Source: a virus. From it: 64,000 nt of DNA. Under the pieces are notes generated by a model, which was given only the letters and a program-made list of their open reading frames with translations, searched no databases and was not told the origin of the DNA. Within the stretch, counting starts at the first letter, position 1. The number at the start of each line of letters is the position of its first letter. Positions 18,343-25,950 of the stretch are shown here, one piece after another. Location of the stretch: IMG/VR virus record IMGVR_UViG_3300032287_003559, positions 96,001 through 160,000 of that record; one strand, written 5' to 3'. Position numbers and translations under genes: made by a program.

Positions 18343-18552
18343 ATGACTGTAACAAAAAATGAATTTGGTCAAATGAATATGTGGGCAAAAGAACCCTCTA
18401 TGTATATGACAAAAGAAGATCTTGAGCGTTATGGAATTGAACCATATGCTGAAAAGGCAGAAAAAATGAATGGTCGTTGGGCAATGATGGGATTTGTTGC
18501 TGGTGTTATTTCTTATGCTATCACTGGTAACTTCTTCTTTGGTGTATTCTGA
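18343..18552 (+). CDS. hli: high-light-inducible protein
   Basis: AEKMNGRWAMMGF chlorophyll-binding motif. Confidence 0.93.
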   Translation: MTVTKNEFGQMNMWAKEPSMYMTKEDLERYGIEPYAEKAEKMNGRWAMMGFVAGVISYAITGNFFFGVF

Positions 18553-18913: not shown

Positions 18914-19029
18914 ACAAAATTTTTACTGAGCGCGCAGAGCGTATTAATGGATGGGCTGCAATGATCGGATTTGTTGCTGCTGCTGGTTCTTATCTGGTTA
19001 CTGGGCAAATTATTCCCGGTGTATTTTGA
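18910..19029 (+). CDS. hli: high-light-inducible protein (39 aa, missing from ORF track)
   Basis: MNKIFTERAERINGWAAMIGFVAAAGSYLVTGQIIPGVF; AExxNG and TGQIIPG motifs; upstream AGGAG. Confidence 0.93.
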   Translation: MNKIFTERAERINGWAAMIGFVAAAGSYLVTGQIIPGVF

Positions 19030-19040
19030 TGGAGGTTCCT

Positions 19041-19568
19041 ATGCGTAAAGAAGGTTATCAAATTCCTCAAGTTGAGTTTGTGTTCCGTGAAGCAGGTGAG
19101 TTTGTAACACGTACTTCTACCGAACTTTTCAATAGCAAGCGTGTTGTAATCTTCTCTCTTCCTGGTGCGTTTACTCCTACATGTAGTGCCTATCAACTTC
19201 CTGGTTTTGAGGAAAAGTTTGAAGACTTTAAAGCACTTGGTATTGATGAGATTTATTGCATCTCTGTGAATGATGGTTTTGTAATGAATGCTTGGGCACA
19301 AGATCAAAATATTCAAAACGTAAAACTAATTCCCGATGGAAATGCATATTTCACCCGTTCGATGGGTATGCTCGTCAATAAGTCGAACCTTGGGTTCGGT
19401 GAGCGTAGTTGGCGTTACGCTGCTGTGGTAAAAGACGGTATTATTGAAAAACTGTTTGTTGAACCTGGAAAGCGTGATAATTCCCCAGAAGATCCTTATG
19501 GTGAAACAACTCCAGAAAATGTTTTGAATTATATTAGATCATCTGTATTAGAGATGGAACTTGTTTGA
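19041..19568 (+). CDS. type II peroxiredoxin (Prx5-like)
   Basis: FSLPGAFTPTCS, SVND.FVM.AW, PDGN..FT, RSWRYA; GGAGG before ATG 19041. Confidence 0.93.
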   Translation: MRKEGYQIPQVEFVFREAGEFVTRTSTELFNSKRVVIFSLPGAFTPTCSAYQLPGFEEKFEDFKALGIDEIYCISVNDGFVMNAWAQDQNIQNVKLIPDGNAYFTRSMGMLVNKSNLGFGERSWRYAAVVKDGIIEKLFVEPGKRDNSPEDPYGETTPENVLNYIRSSVLEMELV

Positions 19569-19572
19569 TTTT

Positions 19573-19596
19573 AAGGAGGGTTTAACCCTCCTTTTT
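19573..19596 (+). terminator. intrinsic terminator
   Basis: AAGGAGGGT-TTA-ACCCTCCTT + T run; followed by a CTAAATA late-promoter-like motif. Confidence 0.8.
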
Positions 19597-19627
19597 ACTA
19601 AATACATTTACTCTATGTTTGGGAAAG

Positions 19628-20323
19628 ATGAGAGTAGATCTTCATAACTTCTTTAAGCATTATGATGAAAATAATCCAAAACATGTTGCAGCAGTAGAGC
19701 AACTTGAAGTGGATCTTGCAAGTAAGAATCCAGATTTGATCGATGATGCCTCAAACTGGGTTCGCATCTATAGAACAGTTCCTGCAGTTCCGGGAATTCT
19801 TCCAGTTCCTTATTATCCACAGACAGATAACTACAGAGACGCACAAAGAACCTGTAACTCATCTTCTTGTGCGATGTGTCTAGAATACTTTAAACCAGGC
19901 ACGTTACAAGGGGCAAAGGGCGATGATGCCTATATTCAAAAGGTATTTGCTATTGGTGATACAACTGATCACTCCGTCCAGACGAAAGTTCTGGAAGGTT
20001 ATGGAGTTAAGTCACACTTCAGTTACAATCTTTCTTTCTCTGATCTTGATCGTGAGCTTGCCGCTGGGAGACCTGTCGTTATCGGGATTCTTCATAGGGG
20101 CACTTTATCTGCACCTACTGGTGGGCACATGGTTGTAGTCATCGGTAAAAAGGGTGAAGACTACGTAGTAAATGATCCGTATGGATCTTTGAATGATGGT
20201 TATACGGGAGCAGTAACCAACGGTAAAGGTGCTGTATATAAGAAATCAGATCTGATGTATCGTTGGTTAGATCATGGTAAGGATAGAACTGGTTGGGGTC
20301 GTATTTTTGATATAAAAAAGTAG
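19628..20323 (+). CDS. C39-like cysteine peptidase domain protein (endolysin N-terminal part)
   Basis: VPYYPQTDN...RTCNSSSCAM, GGHMVVVIG, VNDPYG (C-H-D triad). Confidence 0.85.
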   Translation: MRVDLHNFFKHYDENNPKHVAAVEQLEVDLASKNPDLIDDASNWVRIYRTVPAVPGILPVPYYPQTDNYRDAQRTCNSSSCAMCLEYFKPGTLQGAKGDDAYIQKVFAIGDTTDHSVQTKVLEGYGVKSHFSYNLSFSDLDRELAAGRPVVIGILHRGTLSAPTGGHMVVVIGKKGEDYVVNDPYGSLNDGYTGAVTNGKGAVYKKSDLMYRWLDHGKDRTGWGRIFDIKK

Positions 20324-20811
20324 AACCAACACCACCACCAAAAAATGACATCCCTTTGTGTGGTGTTGAATTAATTAAATCTTTTGAGGGATGTCGTTTA
20401 AATGCATATCCTGATCCATTAACCGGAGGTCTTCCAATCACAATCGGTTGGGGGAGTACAAAAGATTTTGATCGAACTCCTTTTAAGATGGGTAAAGTGA
20501 TTACTCAAAAGTATGCAGACACTCTACTTGAGTTTGAGTTAAGAAATAGATACCTTCCTTCCCTACAAAAAATACCATATTGGGACGAAATGAATGAAAA
20601 TCAAAGAGGGGCTTTGCTTTGCTTTGCTTACAATCTTGGTGCAGATTTTTATGGTAATTCTAACTTCAGTACTATTACAAGGATCTTAAAGAATAGGGAA
20701 TGGAATAAAGTTCCTGATGCACTATACCTTTACCGTAATCCAGGAACTAAAGTTGAAGCAGGATTAGTAAGAAGAAGAGTTGCTGAAGGAAATCTTTGGT
20801 CTAGACCATAA
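20320..20811 (+). CDS. GH24/T4-type lysozyme domain, probably reached by -1 frameshift from the peptidase
   Basis: IKSFEG.RL.AY.D....TIGWG, AL..FAYNLG, GLVRRR.AE; the -1 frame is open through AAAAAAG (20314-20320) and has only a TTG start. Confidence 0.88.
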   Translation, partial: VEPTPPPKNDIPLCGVELIKSFEGCRLNAYPDPLTGGLPITIGWGSTKDFDRTPFKMGKVITQKYADTLLEFELRNRYLPSLQKIPYWDEMNENQRGALLCFAYNLGADFYGNSNFSTITRILKNREWNKVPDALYLYRNPGTKVEAGLVRRRVAEGNLWSRP

Positions 20812-21142
20812 AAGGAACTGCTACACCTTCATTAATCATTCTTTCATTTACCGTGACTGGATCTCCTACAAAATAAAGAGTTCCAAGTATTCTTCCGTAC
20901 TTATCTTCTTTTGTAGTCTCAATAATCCATTCACCTTCTTTTGCGAGTTCTTTTTTTAACCATTCTTTTGCTGCAAGACCTCTTTCTTTTTCTTCTATGT
21001 CCAAAGTTCTTGTTTCTGCGGCATTAATACCTTTAAGGCGAACTCTTTGAGATAAGGTAATTCCAAATCCCAAATCAATATCAACGTCAACTGTATCACC
21101 ATCAATGATTCTTTTGATTTTCTTTATTTTGTATTGATACAT
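20801..21142 (-). CDS. thermonuclease (SNase)-family protein
   Basis: IIDGDTVD, RVRLKGINAAE, DKYGRILG. Confidence 0.88.
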   Translation of the reverse strand: MYQYKIKKIKRIIDGDTVDVDIDLGFGITLSQRVRLKGINAAETRTLDIEEKERGLAAKEWLKKELAKEGEWIIETTKEDKYGRILGTLYFVGDPVTVNERMINEGVAVPFMV

Positions 21143-21242
21143 TTTCTTGATTTGCAATGAGTAATATTTTATAAATGACCCAAGCGACTCCTATGAGTCC
21201 AATACCCAATAGTATATTTACACTCCAGACTACCTCTTTCAT
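21102..21242 (-). CDS. 46-aa single-TM hypothetical protein
   Basis: MKEVVWSVNILLGIGLIGVAWVIYKILL...; ATGA overlap with upstream ORF. Confidence 0.55.
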   Translation of the reverse strand: MKEVVWSVNILLGIGLIGVAWVIYKILLIANQENVSIQNKENQKNH

Positions 21243-21430
21243 TTTCCCTCTTGGCGATGTATCCAAGTTTTAAGTTCATGTAAATATTGTCTAAGCATGT
21301 CTGCTTTTTGCAGATGCCAAGTATCGCCACTCTTAAAGTACTCTTGAGTGTGATTGTCTATTGCTTTAAGGATATTGTGGATGGGAGCATTCCAAGGAGC
21401 TCTTTCATCCGTGTTCCATTCTCTGGGCAT
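21239..21430 (-). CDS. hypothetical protein
   Basis: 63-aa ORF in the minus-strand mini-operon. Confidence 0.65.
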   Translation of the reverse strand: MPREWNTDERAPWNAPIHNILKAIDNHTQEYFKSGDTWHLQKADMLRQYLHELKTWIHRQEGK

Positions 21431-21433
21431 ATA

Positions 21434-21535
21434 TCACTTTTTCTTACCTCCATTCTTTGCCTTTTTCGCAGTCGCATTACCTTGATTCTGCTTTGAAGGT
21501 CCTTTCTTGGACTTCTTGTTGGGCGACTTAGACAT
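21434..21535 (-). CDS. 33-aa Lys-rich basic peptide
   Basis: MSKSPNKKSKKGPSKQNQGNATAKKAKNGGKKK. Confidence 0.5.
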   Translation of the reverse strand: MSKSPNKKSKKGPSKQNQGNATAKKAKNGGKKK

Positions 21536-21603
21536 TTTAGTTTTTATATTTAAATATTTATGTTAGAATAAATATAGTAAAAGATAAGCAGATAGTATTA
21601 TAA

Positions 21604-23964
21604 GTGGCACTCAAAAAACCGTCAGACCTATTTAATAAAAAAGAATCTTCTGGAGTTTTCGATCGTTTAGAAGTATCTATGGATATTTCAGAAACTTATG
21701 ATCGTTTTCGTGATAACTTAGATAGAGTTAATGTTTTATCTGAAAAAGTAGAAGAACTATCCAACCAACTATCTCAAAAATTGGATAGAGATGATCTTGA
21801 GAATGCAATGCTATCTCAGTTGATGATTCTTGATGAAAATTTTAAATCTTTTCAGAATCAAATTAAGGGATTAAACAAAGAAGATTTAAAAGAGTTTAAA
21901 TCAACAGTTTTAAGTCTTACTGAAATTGTTGAAGAACTTTTTGAAAAAGAACTTCCAAGATACAAAAAACAAGTTACCAATACAGATATTCGTATTGGCG
22001 AAAAGTTTGATGATCTAAAAAAAGAAGTAAAAGAAAATATTATTAGCATTAAAGAAGATGTAGATTCTAAGGTAGAAAATATCGCTGAAGTAATTGATAA
22101 TAATTTAGAATATTTTAACCGACAACTTGAAGAAACATCTTTAGAAGTTAAGGAGAATATTAAAGAAACCAAGGATAGTTATCATAAACTCTATGATCTT
22201 CAGAATAAATTAGAAACATCTGTTGATTTATCTTTAGATGATTATCGTAAAGAACTTTCTGTTGCGAAGGCAGATATTCTAATTAATGATCAGCACATCA
22301 AAAATGTAGATCGATATATTCAAGAATATCATCAAGAACTTATTGAACTTAAAGAAGAAGTTTTTGATGAACTTGAAAAACTTCCAGTTGGAAATATTCA
22401 AGAAAATATTAAAAGACTTGAAAAGAAGATTGACTATATTAAAGAGACATATTCTAGAATTGAACCGGAAGTTATTGTAAAGGAAGTCATTAAGGAAGGA
22501 CTTCTTAATGAACCGCCAGAAACACAAAATACTGATTCATTAACGCCATTAAATAAAAACTTTGTTACCCTAGATCAGCTTCAGGAACACTATAGATTAT
22601 TCATTAATCGTATTCAACAGCAACTCTCTACATTAGGTGGAGGTGGTGAGACTCGTCTTGAATTTTTAGATGATGTTGATAGAAACTCTGTAAATCAAAA
22701 TGGTTATGTTCTTCAATATAATTCTGCTCAAGGAAAGTTCATTGGGACAAGTTATATTTCTGGAAGTGGAATAGGATCCTTTACTCAACTTCAAGTTGCT
22801 GGCGTATCTACCTTTACTGCTGGTCCAGTTTTAATTGGATCTGGTACTTCTACAGGAACGGCAACACAGAGACTTCAAGTTACTGGTGGTGGTTATGTTT
22901 CTGGTAATCTTGGTATTGGGACCACAAATCCAATACAAAAAGTCGAAGTTATTAGTACAGATACTGATATTGTTAGGATTAGAGGAGCAAGTTCTGGAGT
23001 TCGTTTTCAGTCCAATCCTAGTTCAATGGACATTATTTCTCATAATGGAAGTGATACTGGTACTAGGAATTTATTTATTAGACAATACTCTCAATCGGTT
23101 GGAATATTATTAGATACAAATAATAATGTTGGTATTGGGACTACAAATCCATTAGCACTTTTGCAAGTTGGTGCTGGAACATCTGCAGTTGTTGTAACTG
23201 GTATTGGATCTGTTGGTATTGGGACTACAACTCCCGGTGCAATGTTAAATGTGAATGCACCGAGTGCGTTTGTGGGGAACCTGCTGGATTTGCAGGTTAA
23301 TGGGACGAGACAGGTAAGTGCGAATAGCTCAGGCGTGATACGGTTAAAGCAATTACAGGCATCAAGTGCAGTAAGCAATGCTTGCAGCGCCGTAAACCTT
23401 GATTATTTTGGGACCGGAAACGCTGTTGGCGTTGCATTTGGCAGGGAAGACGGAACATACTACGCAGCCCTGGGCCAGTTTAGCTTTGGCGCGCCTACTT
23501 GGGCCTTTTCCAGCACCCTTCTGCTTTCGTGGACGAACGGCACGGCAACTGGGGGCACGGCCGATCTCACCATTACTCGCGACGCCGCCAACACCCTCGC
23601 CCAGCGCAACGGCACTAACGCACAAGTCTTCCGGGTCTATAACACATACACTTCAGCATCACAATACGAAAGAGCATATCTGGGTTGGAACAATAATATA
23701 TTCCAAATAGGTGTTGATACTGCTGGTATTTCTACAGCAAGACAAATGGAATTCCAGACTGATGGAATCACTAGAGTTGCTATTAGTACTATCGGTTCTG
23801 TTGGTATTGGGACTACAACACCAACATCAACACTTCAGGTAATCGGTGACGCTCGCATTGGAATCAATACCTCTCAAGGAATTATTTTAACTTCTCCAAA
23901 TGGAACAAGATATCGTTTAATAGTTGATAATAGTGGAGTTATAAGTACAGTTCTTGCGCCCTAA
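21604..23964 (+). CDS. fibre-like virion protein (N-terminal coiled coil + GIGTT repeats)
   Basis: Long heptad-rich region, LSTLGGGGETRL junction, repeated VGIGTT motifs; ATAAATA late promoter upstream. Confidence 0.7.
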   Translation: MALKKPSDLFNKKESSGVFDRLEVSMDISETYDRFRDNLDRVNVLSEKVEELSNQLSQKLDRDDLENAMLSQLMILDENFKSFQNQIKGLNKEDLKEFKSTVLSLTEIVEELFEKELPRYKKQVTNTDIRIGEKFDDLKKEVKENIISIKEDVDSKVENIAEVIDNNLEYFNRQLEETSLEVKENIKETKDSYHKLYDLQNKLETSVDLSLDDYRKELSVAKADILINDQHIKNVDRYIQEYHQELIELKEEVFDELEKLPVGNIQENIKRLEKKIDYIKETYSRIEPEVIVKEVIKEGLLNEPPETQNTDSLTPLNKNFVTLDQLQEHYRLFINRIQQQLSTLGGGGETRLEFLDDVDRNSVNQNGYVLQYNSAQGKFIGTSYISGSGIGSFTQLQVAGVSTFTAGPVLIGSGTSTGTATQRLQVTGGGYVSGNLGIGTTNPIQKVEVISTDTDIVRIRGASSGVRFQSNPSSMDIISHNGSDTGTRNLFIRQYSQSVGILLDTNNNVGIGTTNPLALLQVGAGTSAVVVTGIGSVGIGTTTPGAMLNVNAPSAFVGNLLDLQVNGTRQVSANSSGVIRLKQLQASSAVSNACSAVNLDYFGTGNAVGVAFGREDGTYYAALGQFSFGAPTWAFSSTLLLSWTNGTATGGTADLTITRDAANTLAQRNGTNAQVFRVYNTYTSASQYERAYLGWNNNIFQIGVDTAGISTARQMEFQTDGITRVAISTIGSVGIGTTTPTSTLQVIGDARIGINTSQGIILTSPNGTRYRLIVDNSGVISTVLAP
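23209..23819 (+). repeat. 23-nt exact direct repeats flanking a GC-rich segment
   Basis: TCTGTTGGTATTGGGACTACAAC at 23209-23231 and 23797-23819. Confidence 0.85.
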
Positions 23965-23969
23965 GGGGG

Positions 23970-24003
23970 TTGACAGATTCGTAAAGGACTGTTACAATAA
24001 ATA
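23970..24003 (+). promoter_or_regulatory. psbA early promoter plus late promoter
   Basis: TTGACA-17-TACAAT overlapping ATAAATA. Confidence 0.75.
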
Positions 24004-24044
24004 CATCAACAAGTTAAGAAATGTAACTGTTCTTAATGTTGTCC

Positions 24045-24145
24045 TCTTCCTAACCGAGACCTATGGGGAGGTTAAACACAGTCTCTCATATCCACACTGG
24101 AGGGTGGTGTGGAGCATACTGATACCTGTTCGTCCCCCCGAACTT
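24045..24145 (+). ncRNA. PhotoRC-II-like structured psbA leader RNA
   Basis: CCTAACCGAGACCTATGGGG...GTCTCTCATATCC...GAGGG...GGA arrangement (GAGAC/GTCTC pairing) in the psbA 5'UTR. Confidence 0.65.
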
Positions 24146-24164
24146 CTATCTAACACTCTTACAA

Positions 24165-25455
24165 ATGACTGCTTCAATTGCTCAACAACGACAACTTAAT
24201 ACTTGGGACCAGTTCTGTGACTGGGTTACTTCAACGAACAACCGACTTTATGTTGGTTGGTCGGGAACTATTATGATTCCGTGTCTTCTTGCTGCTACTG
24301 CATGTTTTATTCTTGCATTTATCGCAGCACCGCCGACAGACATTGATGGAATTAGGGAACCAGTTGCTGGTTCTCTTATGTGGGGAAACAATATTATCTC
24401 TGGTGCTGTTGTTCCTTCGTCCAATGCGATTGGACTACACTTTTATCCAATCTGGGAAGCACAATCTCTAGATGAATGGGCATATAATGGAGGTGAATAC
24501 CAACTCATTGTTTTCCACTTCCTTATTGGTATTTGGATGTATGCTATGCGAGAGTGGGAACTCTCTTATCGTCTTGGTATGCGTCCATGGATTTTTGTTG
24601 CCTATTCTGCTCCTGCTATTGCTGCAACTGCCGTATTTCTCCTTTATCCAATTGGACAAGGAAGTTTTAGTGATGGTATGCCTCTTGGTATTTCTGGAAC
24701 CTTTAACTTTATGCTTGTATTCCAAGCAGAGCACAACATCTTGATGCACCCATTTCATATGATGGGAGTTGCGGGTGTATTTGGTGGTGCCTTTGCTGGA
24801 GCAATGCACGGTTCTTTGGTTACTTCTTCACTTGTTCGTGAGACGACTGAAACTGAATCTCAAAACTATGGATATAAGTTTGGTCAGGAAGAGGAAACAT
24901 ATAATATTGTTGCTGCACACGGATATTTCGGTCGTTTGATTTTTCAATACGCATCATTTAATAACTCCCGTTCTCTGCACTTCTTTCTTGCTGCACTTCC
25001 AGTAATTGGTATTTGGTTTACTTCTCTTGGTATTGCTACTATGAGTTATAATCTTAACGGATTTAATTTTGTTCAAAGTATTACTGATCACCAGGGACGA
25101 GTAATTAAAACCTGGGCAGATGTGCTAAATGGGGCAAATCTTGGAATAGAAGTAATGCATGAGCGTAGATTTGGGTATTGCGTTCTTTAAATCGGATGAA
25201 TTGCTGGAAACCCCAAGTGGGCAATCAGCAGCCAAGTCCAAAGTACACTTTGGAAAGGTTCAGAGACTACCTGAGGAATAAAGTTTCCTTAATAACAGGC
25301 ACGAGCGTCCGACACCAGAAATGGTGATGATATAGTCCAATCCTGGTAGTAATACCAGAAAACCAAAGGAATAAAAGAATGCCCATAATTTTCCTTTGGA
25401 CCTTGCATCAGTTGAAGCAACTCCTGTTGCCTTGACTGCTCCAACCATCGGGTGA
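24165..25455 (+). CDS. psbA: photosystem II D1 (exons 24165-25166 and 25378-25455; 359 aa spliced), highly divergent
   Basis: D1 sequence to ...EVMHER, resuming [10 protein letters not shown]...APTIG after the intron. Confidence 0.97.
25167..25377 (+). mobile_element. group I intron (211 nt) after psbA codon 334
   Basis: Exon ends in U and intron ends in G. IGS GGGTATTGCGTTC pairs with exon-1 GAGCGT (P1) and exon-2 AATGCCC (P10). Core elements AATTGCTGGAAA, AATCAGCAG, GTTCAGAGACTA, GATATAGTCC. Confidence 0.95.
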
Positions 25456-25461
25456 TATAAT

Positions 25462-25491
25462 AAAGGGGAACTCTTCGGAGTTCCTTTTTTT
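25462..25491 (+). terminator. psbA terminator followed by late promoter TATAAATA (25491-25498)
   Basis: GGAACTC-TTCG-GAGTTCC + T run. Confidence 0.85.
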
Positions 25492-25521
25492 ATAAATAAT
25501 TATGCACGAAAGAAAACACGA

Positions 25522-25950
25522 ATGACTAAACTATACTCTGAACTTTATAGAACTTGTATGACCTGCGGTAAAGAAAAACTTGCTACGGATTTTTATGTGA
25601 GAAATAAAGTTTCTATGGTTCGCCATTCATCTTGTAAAGAGTGTGATAAAATAAGAGTTAAAAAAAGACATCAAGATAATCCTGAACGCACAAGAAATAA
25701 TGACCTAAAAAGGAATTATGGCATAACTCTCCAAGAACATCAGCAAATGTTTGAGGAACAAAAAGGAGTTTGTGCTATTTGTAAAGGTGAAGGTGATGGT
25801 AAGTGGAAAAAACTTTGTGTAGACCACGACCATAAAACTGGAAAGGTTCGTCAATTACTTTGTAGAAATTGTAATATGGTATTGGGTCAGGTTGGAGATA
25901 ATATAAATCTCTTAGAAGAAATGATTAAATACCTACAGAAACATCAATAA
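25522..25950 (+). CDS. free-standing endonuclease VII-type homing endonuclease (F-CphI-like)
   Basis: YGIT...Q.G.CAIC...VDHDHKTGKVR.LLC..CN..LG; lies directly after psbA. Confidence 0.88.
   Translation: MTKLYSELYRTCMTCGKEKLATDFYVRNKVSMVRHSSCKECDKIRVKKRHQDNPERTRNNDLKRNYGITLQEHQQMFEEQKGVCAICKGEGDGKWKKLCVDHDHKTGKVRQLLCRNCNMVLGQVGDNINLLEEMIKYLQKHQ

Follow-up and report, generated by a model that had tools for sequence, protein, structure and literature searches.

The D1 protein of photosystem II (PSII) is among the most conserved of all proteins, and what is known about the second shell of residues around its cofactors comes mostly from single mutations made in the laboratory. Its standard form constitutes group G4 in the classification of Cardona et al. 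Among the D1 genes carried by cyanophages, the closest described counterpart of the locus analysed here is psbA of the phage S-PM2, which, like the genes of S-RSM88 and S-SRM01, combines a group I intron with a free-standing endonuclease, the homing endonuclease F-CphI (PMC6083498). Intragenic recombination in phage psbA is known (PMC1484495), and the nearest related work, a 2026 preprint on D1 and D2 substitutions in Prochlorococcus phages, concerns other sites and other lineages (10.64898/2026.07.15.738324). For the D1 signature and the clade described below, a literature search returned only general works.

Here we describe a psbA gene contained in a window of 64,000 nucleotides from an IMG/VR virus contig, which has a length of 175 kb and is estimated to be 82% complete. 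The surrounding genes include those of a T4-like cyanomyovirus, namely the single-stranded DNA-binding protein gp32, which is 73% identical to its counterpart in S-SM2, the hub protein gp5, gp48 and tail proteins, and metabolic genes of cyanophages encoding PstS, talC, PTOX, zwf, gnd and glutaredoxin. Located among phage structural and replication genes, psbA is a cyanophage auxiliary metabolic gene. A first-pass annotation, prepared by a model from the sequence, had remarked that no psbD lies beside the gene, and this holds for the 175-kb record as a whole, where at its estimated completeness of 82% no second match to PF00124 was found, unlike in S-PM2, which carries psbD about 1.2 kb downstream of psbA. 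A search across the same record for phage-encoded PsbV, PsbI and PsbO equally found none, and the variant D1 must thus fit the subunits of its host.

The gene occupies positions 24165–25455 of the window on the plus strand, on which all features listed below are located. This span had been put forward in the first-pass annotation as a D1 gene, which is correct with respect to its identity as psbA but not with respect to its continuity, as it consists of two exons and a group I intron and its spliced product is a pre-D1 of 359 residues. Exon 1 (24165..25166) comprises 334 codons for D1 residues 1–334 with T as last nucleotide, belongs to the family PF00124 (Photo_RC, 288.5 bits) and aligns to D1 chains of known structure without gaps over positions 1–334 (phmmer E 4e-193). 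The uninterrupted reading frame starting at 24165 ends at 25190 and, past the residues ...EVMHER, continues into an unrelated sequence. The break is covered by a match to the group I intron family of Rfam (RF00028, 95 bits, E 3e-23), and the intron itself, which does not contain an ORF, spans the 211 nucleotides at 25167..25377, is placed between codons 334 and 335 and ends with G. Exon 2 (25378..25455) encodes residues 335–359 and the stop codon, and its translation shows ten residues, including H337, D342 and A344, followed by a C-terminal extension of 15 amino acids. The boundaries of the intron were read off the nucleotide sequence and the translation of exon 2. As is typical for phage psbA, the gene is preceded by a leader containing a PhotoRC-II RNA motif (24031..24127, RF01717, 72 bits compared to a gathering score of 39). 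Further upstream, a sigma-70-like promoter candidate (23970..23998, TTGACA-17-TACAAT, TG-extended) shows 11 out of 12 matches; it is a consensus match, and such sites occur here as often as expected from shuffled sequences. Downstream of exon 2, an intrinsic terminator was read from the sequence at 25467..25491, with a hairpin GGAACTC-TTCG-GAGTTCC followed by seven T, which in the motif scan also matched on the opposite strand. The adjacent gene at 25522..25950 encodes a free-standing Endo VII-type homing endonuclease (PF02945, 94 bits), whose 142 residues all align to F-CphI of S-PM2 with 82% amino acid identity.

In its organization, the locus closely resembles that of S-PM2, with which it shares a 334-codon exon 1, an ORF-less intron in an identical position and, following it, a short exon 2, a terminator and the Endo VII-type endonuclease, with 83% nucleotide identity between the modules extending from the intron to the endonuclease. 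The window thus contains the arrangement of an intron and a collaborative homing endonuclease known from S-PM2 and F-CphI, with splicing and cleavage being predicted. Conversely, exon 1 of the two phages is only about 75% identical on the nucleotide level and 84% on the level of the protein.

The canonical numbering was transferred from D1 of Synechocystis (8am5_A), to which the 334 residues of exon 1 align without gaps. All of the catalytic and ligand residues that had been reported as retained, and E130, are present once both exons are considered. These include D61, H252, the ligands of the Mn4CaO5 cluster (D170, E189, H332, E333, H337, D342 and A344), YZ (Y161) with H190, the P680 ligand H198, the iron ligands H215 and H272 and the QB residues H215, S264, F255 and F265. 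Further canonical residues are found at Y126, N298, Y246, M214 and L218. Exon 2 encodes the CtpA processing site A344/S345, and its intact state predicts that pre-D1 would be cleaved by CtpA after A344. In these respects, the protein resembles G4 D1s of picocyanobacteria and of phages such as S-T4, S-CREM1 and Syn9, which carry E130, all ligands and a C-terminal extension in a protein of 359–360 residues.

The substitutions listed in the first-pass annotation could be verified without exception (F33S, V58T, L106A, P111E, WMYAM at 124–128, C144F, AFAG at 209–212, W278L, A294S/F295Y, N303V and R323G), and we found L36I, Y73W, A100Q, V151A/A152I, L200M and S291A in addition to those. Altogether, 49 positions deviate from the consensus in a comparison with about 226–240 D1s. 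This set combined the best 80 cyanobacterial loci among 185,579 species genomes with 80 loci from IMG/VR, the D1s of 12 cultured phages and proteins from metagenomes. The claim that the changed sites are near-invariant does not apply to all of them, since positions 124, 125, 127, 144 and 209 vary in ordinary D1s, with F144 found in 38 of 230 and A209 in 35 of 230 sequences.

A stricter count was based on those 249 positions whose conservation among 79 standard D1s of cyanobacteria reaches 98% or more. At these positions, the protein encoded in the window shows 15 changes (F33S, V58T, L106A, P111E, G128M, L200M, L210F, F211A, S212G, W278L, S291A, A294S, F295Y, N303V and R323G), compared to a median of 4 and a 90th percentile of 14 in all of the approximately 250 D1s examined. 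The comparison is conservative because the set consists of the best matches to the query. Plant D1s contain the canonical residue at each of the 15 sites. Synechococcus-phage D1s show 2–5 changes, with D1 of S-PM2 showing three and sharing no signature residue of the window protein, whereas rogue-type paralogs reach 53–59. A comparable divergence is found in the D1s of the Prochlorococcus phages P-SSP7, P-SSM2, P-HM2 and P-RSM4, which carry 12–14 changes. These are located elsewhere (124S/A, 152S, 200A, 278F and 291C) and mirror a known host genus. Of the 29 signature residues of the clade to which the window D1 belongs, none is present in P-HM2 and no more than two, at variable sites, are present in the other Prochlorococcus phages. 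Unlike for these proteins, no host counterpart was found for the clade containing the window D1.

To place the protein within its family, phylogenetic trees were calculated with FastTree and with IQ-TREE (-fast, SH-aLRT, 76 sequences) and rooted with D2. The closest relatives are all of metagenomic origin and show 96% (P0013/L163), 95% (L002) and 94.6% (P0014/L164) identity. The four closest sequences are joined in a tight clade (FastTree 0.94, SH-aLRT 93.7), which is part of a group of about 14 sequences, again all metagenomic (FastTree 0.94, SH-aLRT 82–95), with the next relatives (P0019, P0020, P0017, P0021, P0022 and P0023) being 86–90% identical. In a search of 5.8 billion proteins, all relatives with at least 86% identity were located on short or phage-sized contigs not exceeding 150 kb. 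The group of about 14 is nested with a support of 1.0 within the G4 D1s of picocyanobacteria and cyanophages, which also include all cultured phage D1s, the best of which are 84–85% identical to the window D1. Conversely, the D1′-like and rogue paralogs, which come from the genomes of five cyanobacteria and whose group labels were inferred from the patterns of their ligands and of positions 80/158/286 and not from curated references, are found outside of this group. The clade is thus part of the standard G4 D1s and set apart from the paralogs of groups G0–G3. Measured from the base of the picocyanobacteria and cyanophage group, the branch leading to the window D1 amounts to 0.245 substitutions per site, which is two to three times longer than found for the G4 D1s of picocyanobacteria and Synechococcus phages (0.08–0.16 in the latter), to which the protein is at most 85% identical, while the branches of Prochlorococcus phages extend to 0.30–0.34. 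The suggestion of a distinct viral D1 class consequently stands to the extent that a separate viral clade known from metagenomes was recovered, but not as a group outside of ordinary D1s, since this clade nests in G4 and its branch does not exceed those of Prochlorococcus-phage D1s. The phylogeny that had been proposed as a check places the protein with ordinary cyanophage D1s, yet none of the 12 cultured phage D1s examined shares its signature. Where their gene context was readable, clade members reside on phage-like contigs, and several of these contigs share synteny with one another or with the window. Genes for a Redoxin, a C39 peptidase and a lysozyme are found 5′ of psbA in both the window and L162/L163. 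On the 3′ side, L162/L163 and L243 carry genes for Metallophos and HNH proteins, and L169/L170 carry an HNH gene.

The divergent D1 paralogs of cyanobacteria too depart from canonical D1, and W124 and L278 of the window D1 are also present in the rogue-type paralogs that we sampled. Assignments of the protein to these forms were considered, and none was retained. A microaerobic D1′ (G2), which is characterized by A80/L158/A286, was rejected since the window D1 contains G80, F158 and T286. A rogue or sentinel D1 or ChlF (G1/G0) is incompatible with the presence of all Mn ligands and the distant position of these paralogs on the tree, the rogue-type proteins being only 64–66% identical to the window D1, and a far-red-like D1 was dismissed based on its tree position, its residue pattern and the comparison of the signature with paralogs. 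The first-pass annotation had been correct in excluding rogue, far-red and microaerobic forms, as judged from the intact ligands, the residues at 80, 158 and 286, and the location of the paralogs outside of G4. In fact, D1′ and rogue paralogs share between zero and five of the 29 signature residues. Each of the paralogs examined, whether or not it has lost Mn ligands, has retained F33, V58, L106, G128, L210, F295 and N303, and all but two have retained P111 and R323.

The distribution of the signature is equally restricted among standard D1s. It is absent in the 12 cultured phage D1s and in 30 D1s of picocyanobacteria, which are all canonical at the signature positions. The latter were obtained by searching 301 genomes of the picocyanobacterial order, in which the best matches reach 84–85% and no D1 exceeds 85% identity. 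The best 80 loci of 185,579 species genomes did not contain any D1 above 85% identity either. In a search with residues 100–215, matches of at least 91% were confined to metagenomic clusters, which comprise between 1 and 73 members and are located on contigs of up to 150 kb, whereas clusters of common phage D1s contain thousands of members. Within the clade, A100Q, F124W, M127A, C144F, S209A, S291A and A294S are common to all members examined, and G128M and F295Y are present in most. P111E, L36I, C125M and W278L are common to an inner group. N303V is confined to the tight clade, which shares the AFAG block at 209–212 with L168 and R323G with L167. The signature has thus accumulated stepwise along the clade.

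Nucleotide identity calculated in a sliding window over positions 24031–25950 displays a three-part mosaic. The leader and the first codons (24031–24210) are closest to L167 with 82–100% identity, the core of the gene (24271–25050) is closest to the tight clade with mostly 90–98% and the segment containing the intron, exon 2, the spacer and the endonuclease (25171–25950) is closest to S-PM2 with 68–97%. The intron itself is 82–95% identical to its S-PM2 counterpart over most of its length. This pattern suggests recent recombination and the import of an intron-endonuclease module. Within the tight clade, L163 (P0013) contains a different group I intron (L163:8999-9229, 78.8 bits) located about two codons further downstream, following the residues ...HERNA, while L002 and L164 do not contain an intron, which implies that introns were gained or lost independently among members of this D1 clade. 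Both the mosaic and the variable introns are consistent with the known mobility of introns with their endonucleases and with intragenic recombination. The PhotoRC-II motif is also found 5′ of psbA in L002 and L163. In the spacer and the start of the endonuclease gene (25471–25530), the sequence is 97% identical to S-PM2, whose corresponding region is annotated with the antisense RNA CfrI (Cyanophage Functional RNA 1), which overlaps with the 3′ end of psbA and the 5′ end of F-CphI, and a CfrI-like antisense RNA may thus be conserved at this position.

The 49 differences from the consensus are unevenly distributed over the protein. Not a single one is found in the lumenal cd loop (166–194) around D170, E189 and H190, or in the stromal de loop (222–266), which constitutes the region of the QB head group and bicarbonate. 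Thirty are located in the five transmembrane helices A–E and the remainder is divided between the N-terminal tail, the lumenal ab loop and the lumenal segment at the C-terminus, while a clustering of the 15 conserved-site changes in the primary sequence is marginal (P = 0.05). Several of the changes fall next to residues with known roles. Y126 and E130, which form hydrogen bonds with PheoD1, are flanked by W124, M125, A127 and M128 in the window D1. By homology with bacterial reaction centres, position 210 presumably lies over the pheophytin of the inactive branch. The block at 209–212 surrounds F211, which in canonical D1 makes an attractive contact with the isoprenoid tail of QB (PMC4030317), and positions 278 and 291–295 are part of helix E. 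In the C-terminal lumenal segment, N303V and R323G are found beside residues 304, 319, 322 and 323, and R323, N322, D319 and H304 were assigned to the hydrogen-bond network of YZ in the mutagenesis study of Zhu et al., 2022, as cited in PMC9732884. Since these placements near cofactors were obtained from established knowledge of PSII together with two papers and not from measured distances, we regard them as leads.

In light of these results, we consider it probable that this psbA is a functional gene of a T4-like, uncultured cyanomyovirus and encodes a G4 D1 of the E130 type from a distinct virus-borne sublineage with surfaces adjusted to a virus-specific optimum. By analogy to S-PM2 and other cyanophages, the gene would be transcribed with its PhotoRC-II leader, the group I intron would excise itself and the 359-residue pre-D1 would enter the repair cycle of PSII in the host, where it would replace the host D1 following its processing by CtpA and thereby sustain electron flow during replication of the phage. 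About 15–29 lineage-specific substitutions were gathered stepwise outside of both catalytic loops and have since been maintained by strong purifying selection. The resulting protein would be a fully competent water-oxidising D1, in which surfaces facing cofactors and subunits have shifted, with candidate effects on QB exchange and acceptor-side energetics, the egress of protons on the donor side, packing against host subunits and turnover. That the substitutions in fact retune the surroundings of pigments or quinones or alter turnover, as suggested in the first-pass annotation, is a reading drawn from the location of the residues, and we consider a changed behaviour of PSII somewhat less likely than not, though likelier than silent drift. 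A stronger version, in which the clade provides a functional D1 isoform specific to the virus that is phylogenetically G4 but confers to infected cells a PSII unlike that of any host, appears unlikely on present grounds, though it makes distinct assignments. L210F/F211A/S212G would have remodelled the channel of the QB tail and the face towards PheoD2, the residues flanking Y126 and E130 would have re-tuned the pocket of PheoD1, and N303V and R323G would have altered the exit region for protons near YZ. If true, potential outcomes include a shift of quinone exchange towards the PTOX encoded nearby, a lower dependence on one extrinsic subunit or an escape from the turnover of host D1.

As alternative to an adjusted D1, the substitutions might be functionally silent and reflect near-neutral, mutually compensating hydrophobic drift in a small and fast-evolving phage lineage with unchanged PSII, which we regard as rather unlikely but worth weighing in detail. 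Many replacements are chemically conservative (L/F, A/S, F/Y, V/T and the swap of LF to FA) and could have originated from such drift within helices, pairs such as L210F/F211A, A294S/F295Y and V151A/A152I appear compensatory, the total divergence is about that of Prochlorococcus-phage D1s and the catalytic loops are untouched. However, seven of the changed sites are constant in plants and in all of the D1′ and rogue paralogs examined, and P111E, G128M, W278L, N303V and R323G are not conservative. Moreover, the new residues have remained frozen at a dS of about 0.5–0.7. Pairwise values obtained by the method of Nei and Gojobori show a dN/dS of 0.04–0.08 at dS of 0.46–0.73 in the tight clade and of 0.05–0.15 in the wider clade, with synonymous sites being saturated outside of it, and the same ratio amounts to 0.04 between the psbA genes of S-PM2 and S-T4. 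All four members of the tight clade agree in the signature residues, except for L200 in one of them. The low dN/dS and the fixed signature together indicate that the gene is constrained and not decaying, and the signal of decay that the first-pass annotation had named as a refutation was not found.

A decayed or re-purposed gene with a role akin to a rogue D1 or ChlF but not in water oxidation is therefore highly improbable. The unusually high count of changes at sites with little variation elsewhere, the interruption by an intron and the absence of psbD from the record would be in line with such a fate, but it is hard to reconcile with the integrity of all Mn4CaO5, YZ, P680, Fe and QB residues and of the processing site, with the strong constraint on the gene and with the large distance to rogue paralogs, and the intron scores well as a group I ribozyme and is a homologue of the one in psbA of S-PM2. 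The signature could also have been derived from a host, if psbA was copied from an unsampled picocyanobacterial lineage containing such a D1. Cyanophage D1s are generally found within the diversity of host proteins and have been exchanged with hosts (PMC1484495; 10.64898/2026.07.15.738324), and the scan of species-level genomes covered the best 80 loci. Still, we judge this origin as improbable, in view of the identity ceiling of 85% in both the 301 picocyanobacterial genomes and these 80 loci, and of the location of all relatives of at least 86% identity on short or phage-sized contigs with, where readable, phage neighbours. In the preferred reading of a constrained, virus-borne G4 protein, the clade represents a naturally selected multi-site variant of D1 altered at sites that are otherwise fixed in both cyanobacteria and plants. 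If the behaviour of PSII was changed, viruses would have evolved a reaction-centre isoform of their own beyond the copying of host genes, and the clade would provide a ready-made set of substitutions for the region of the QB tail and pheophytin and for the network of YZ. If the changes were silent, it would illustrate a joint tolerance for change at D1 sites considered as invariant.

Several additional observations were made in the course of the analysis. The order Redoxin, C39-like peptidase, lysozyme and psbA at 18951–23964 of the window equals that at L162:5047-7149, on a 150-kb contig that contains P0013, with an extra gene for a fibre-like protein of 786 residues (21604–23964) inserted directly before psbA relative to L162. 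A weak hli-like match (Chloroa_b-bind, 20.5 bits, below the cut-off) is found at 18451–18528 between the genes for PstS and a peroxiredoxin, about 5.6 kb upstream of psbA. Among the loci used for comparison, the annotated D1 of the Synechococcus phage DSL-LC02 (L211, OR032571.1) is devoid of residues 178–220, a gap of 43 amino acids including E189, H190, H198 and H215, with no extra DNA at this place, which reflects either a true deletion resulting in a non-catalytic D1 or an error in the assembly. Finally, the psbA match in Symploca sp. SIO2E6 (L102, JAAHGR010000006.1) extends over 1455 instead of 1002 nucleotides, which suggests an insertion that is possibly an intron.
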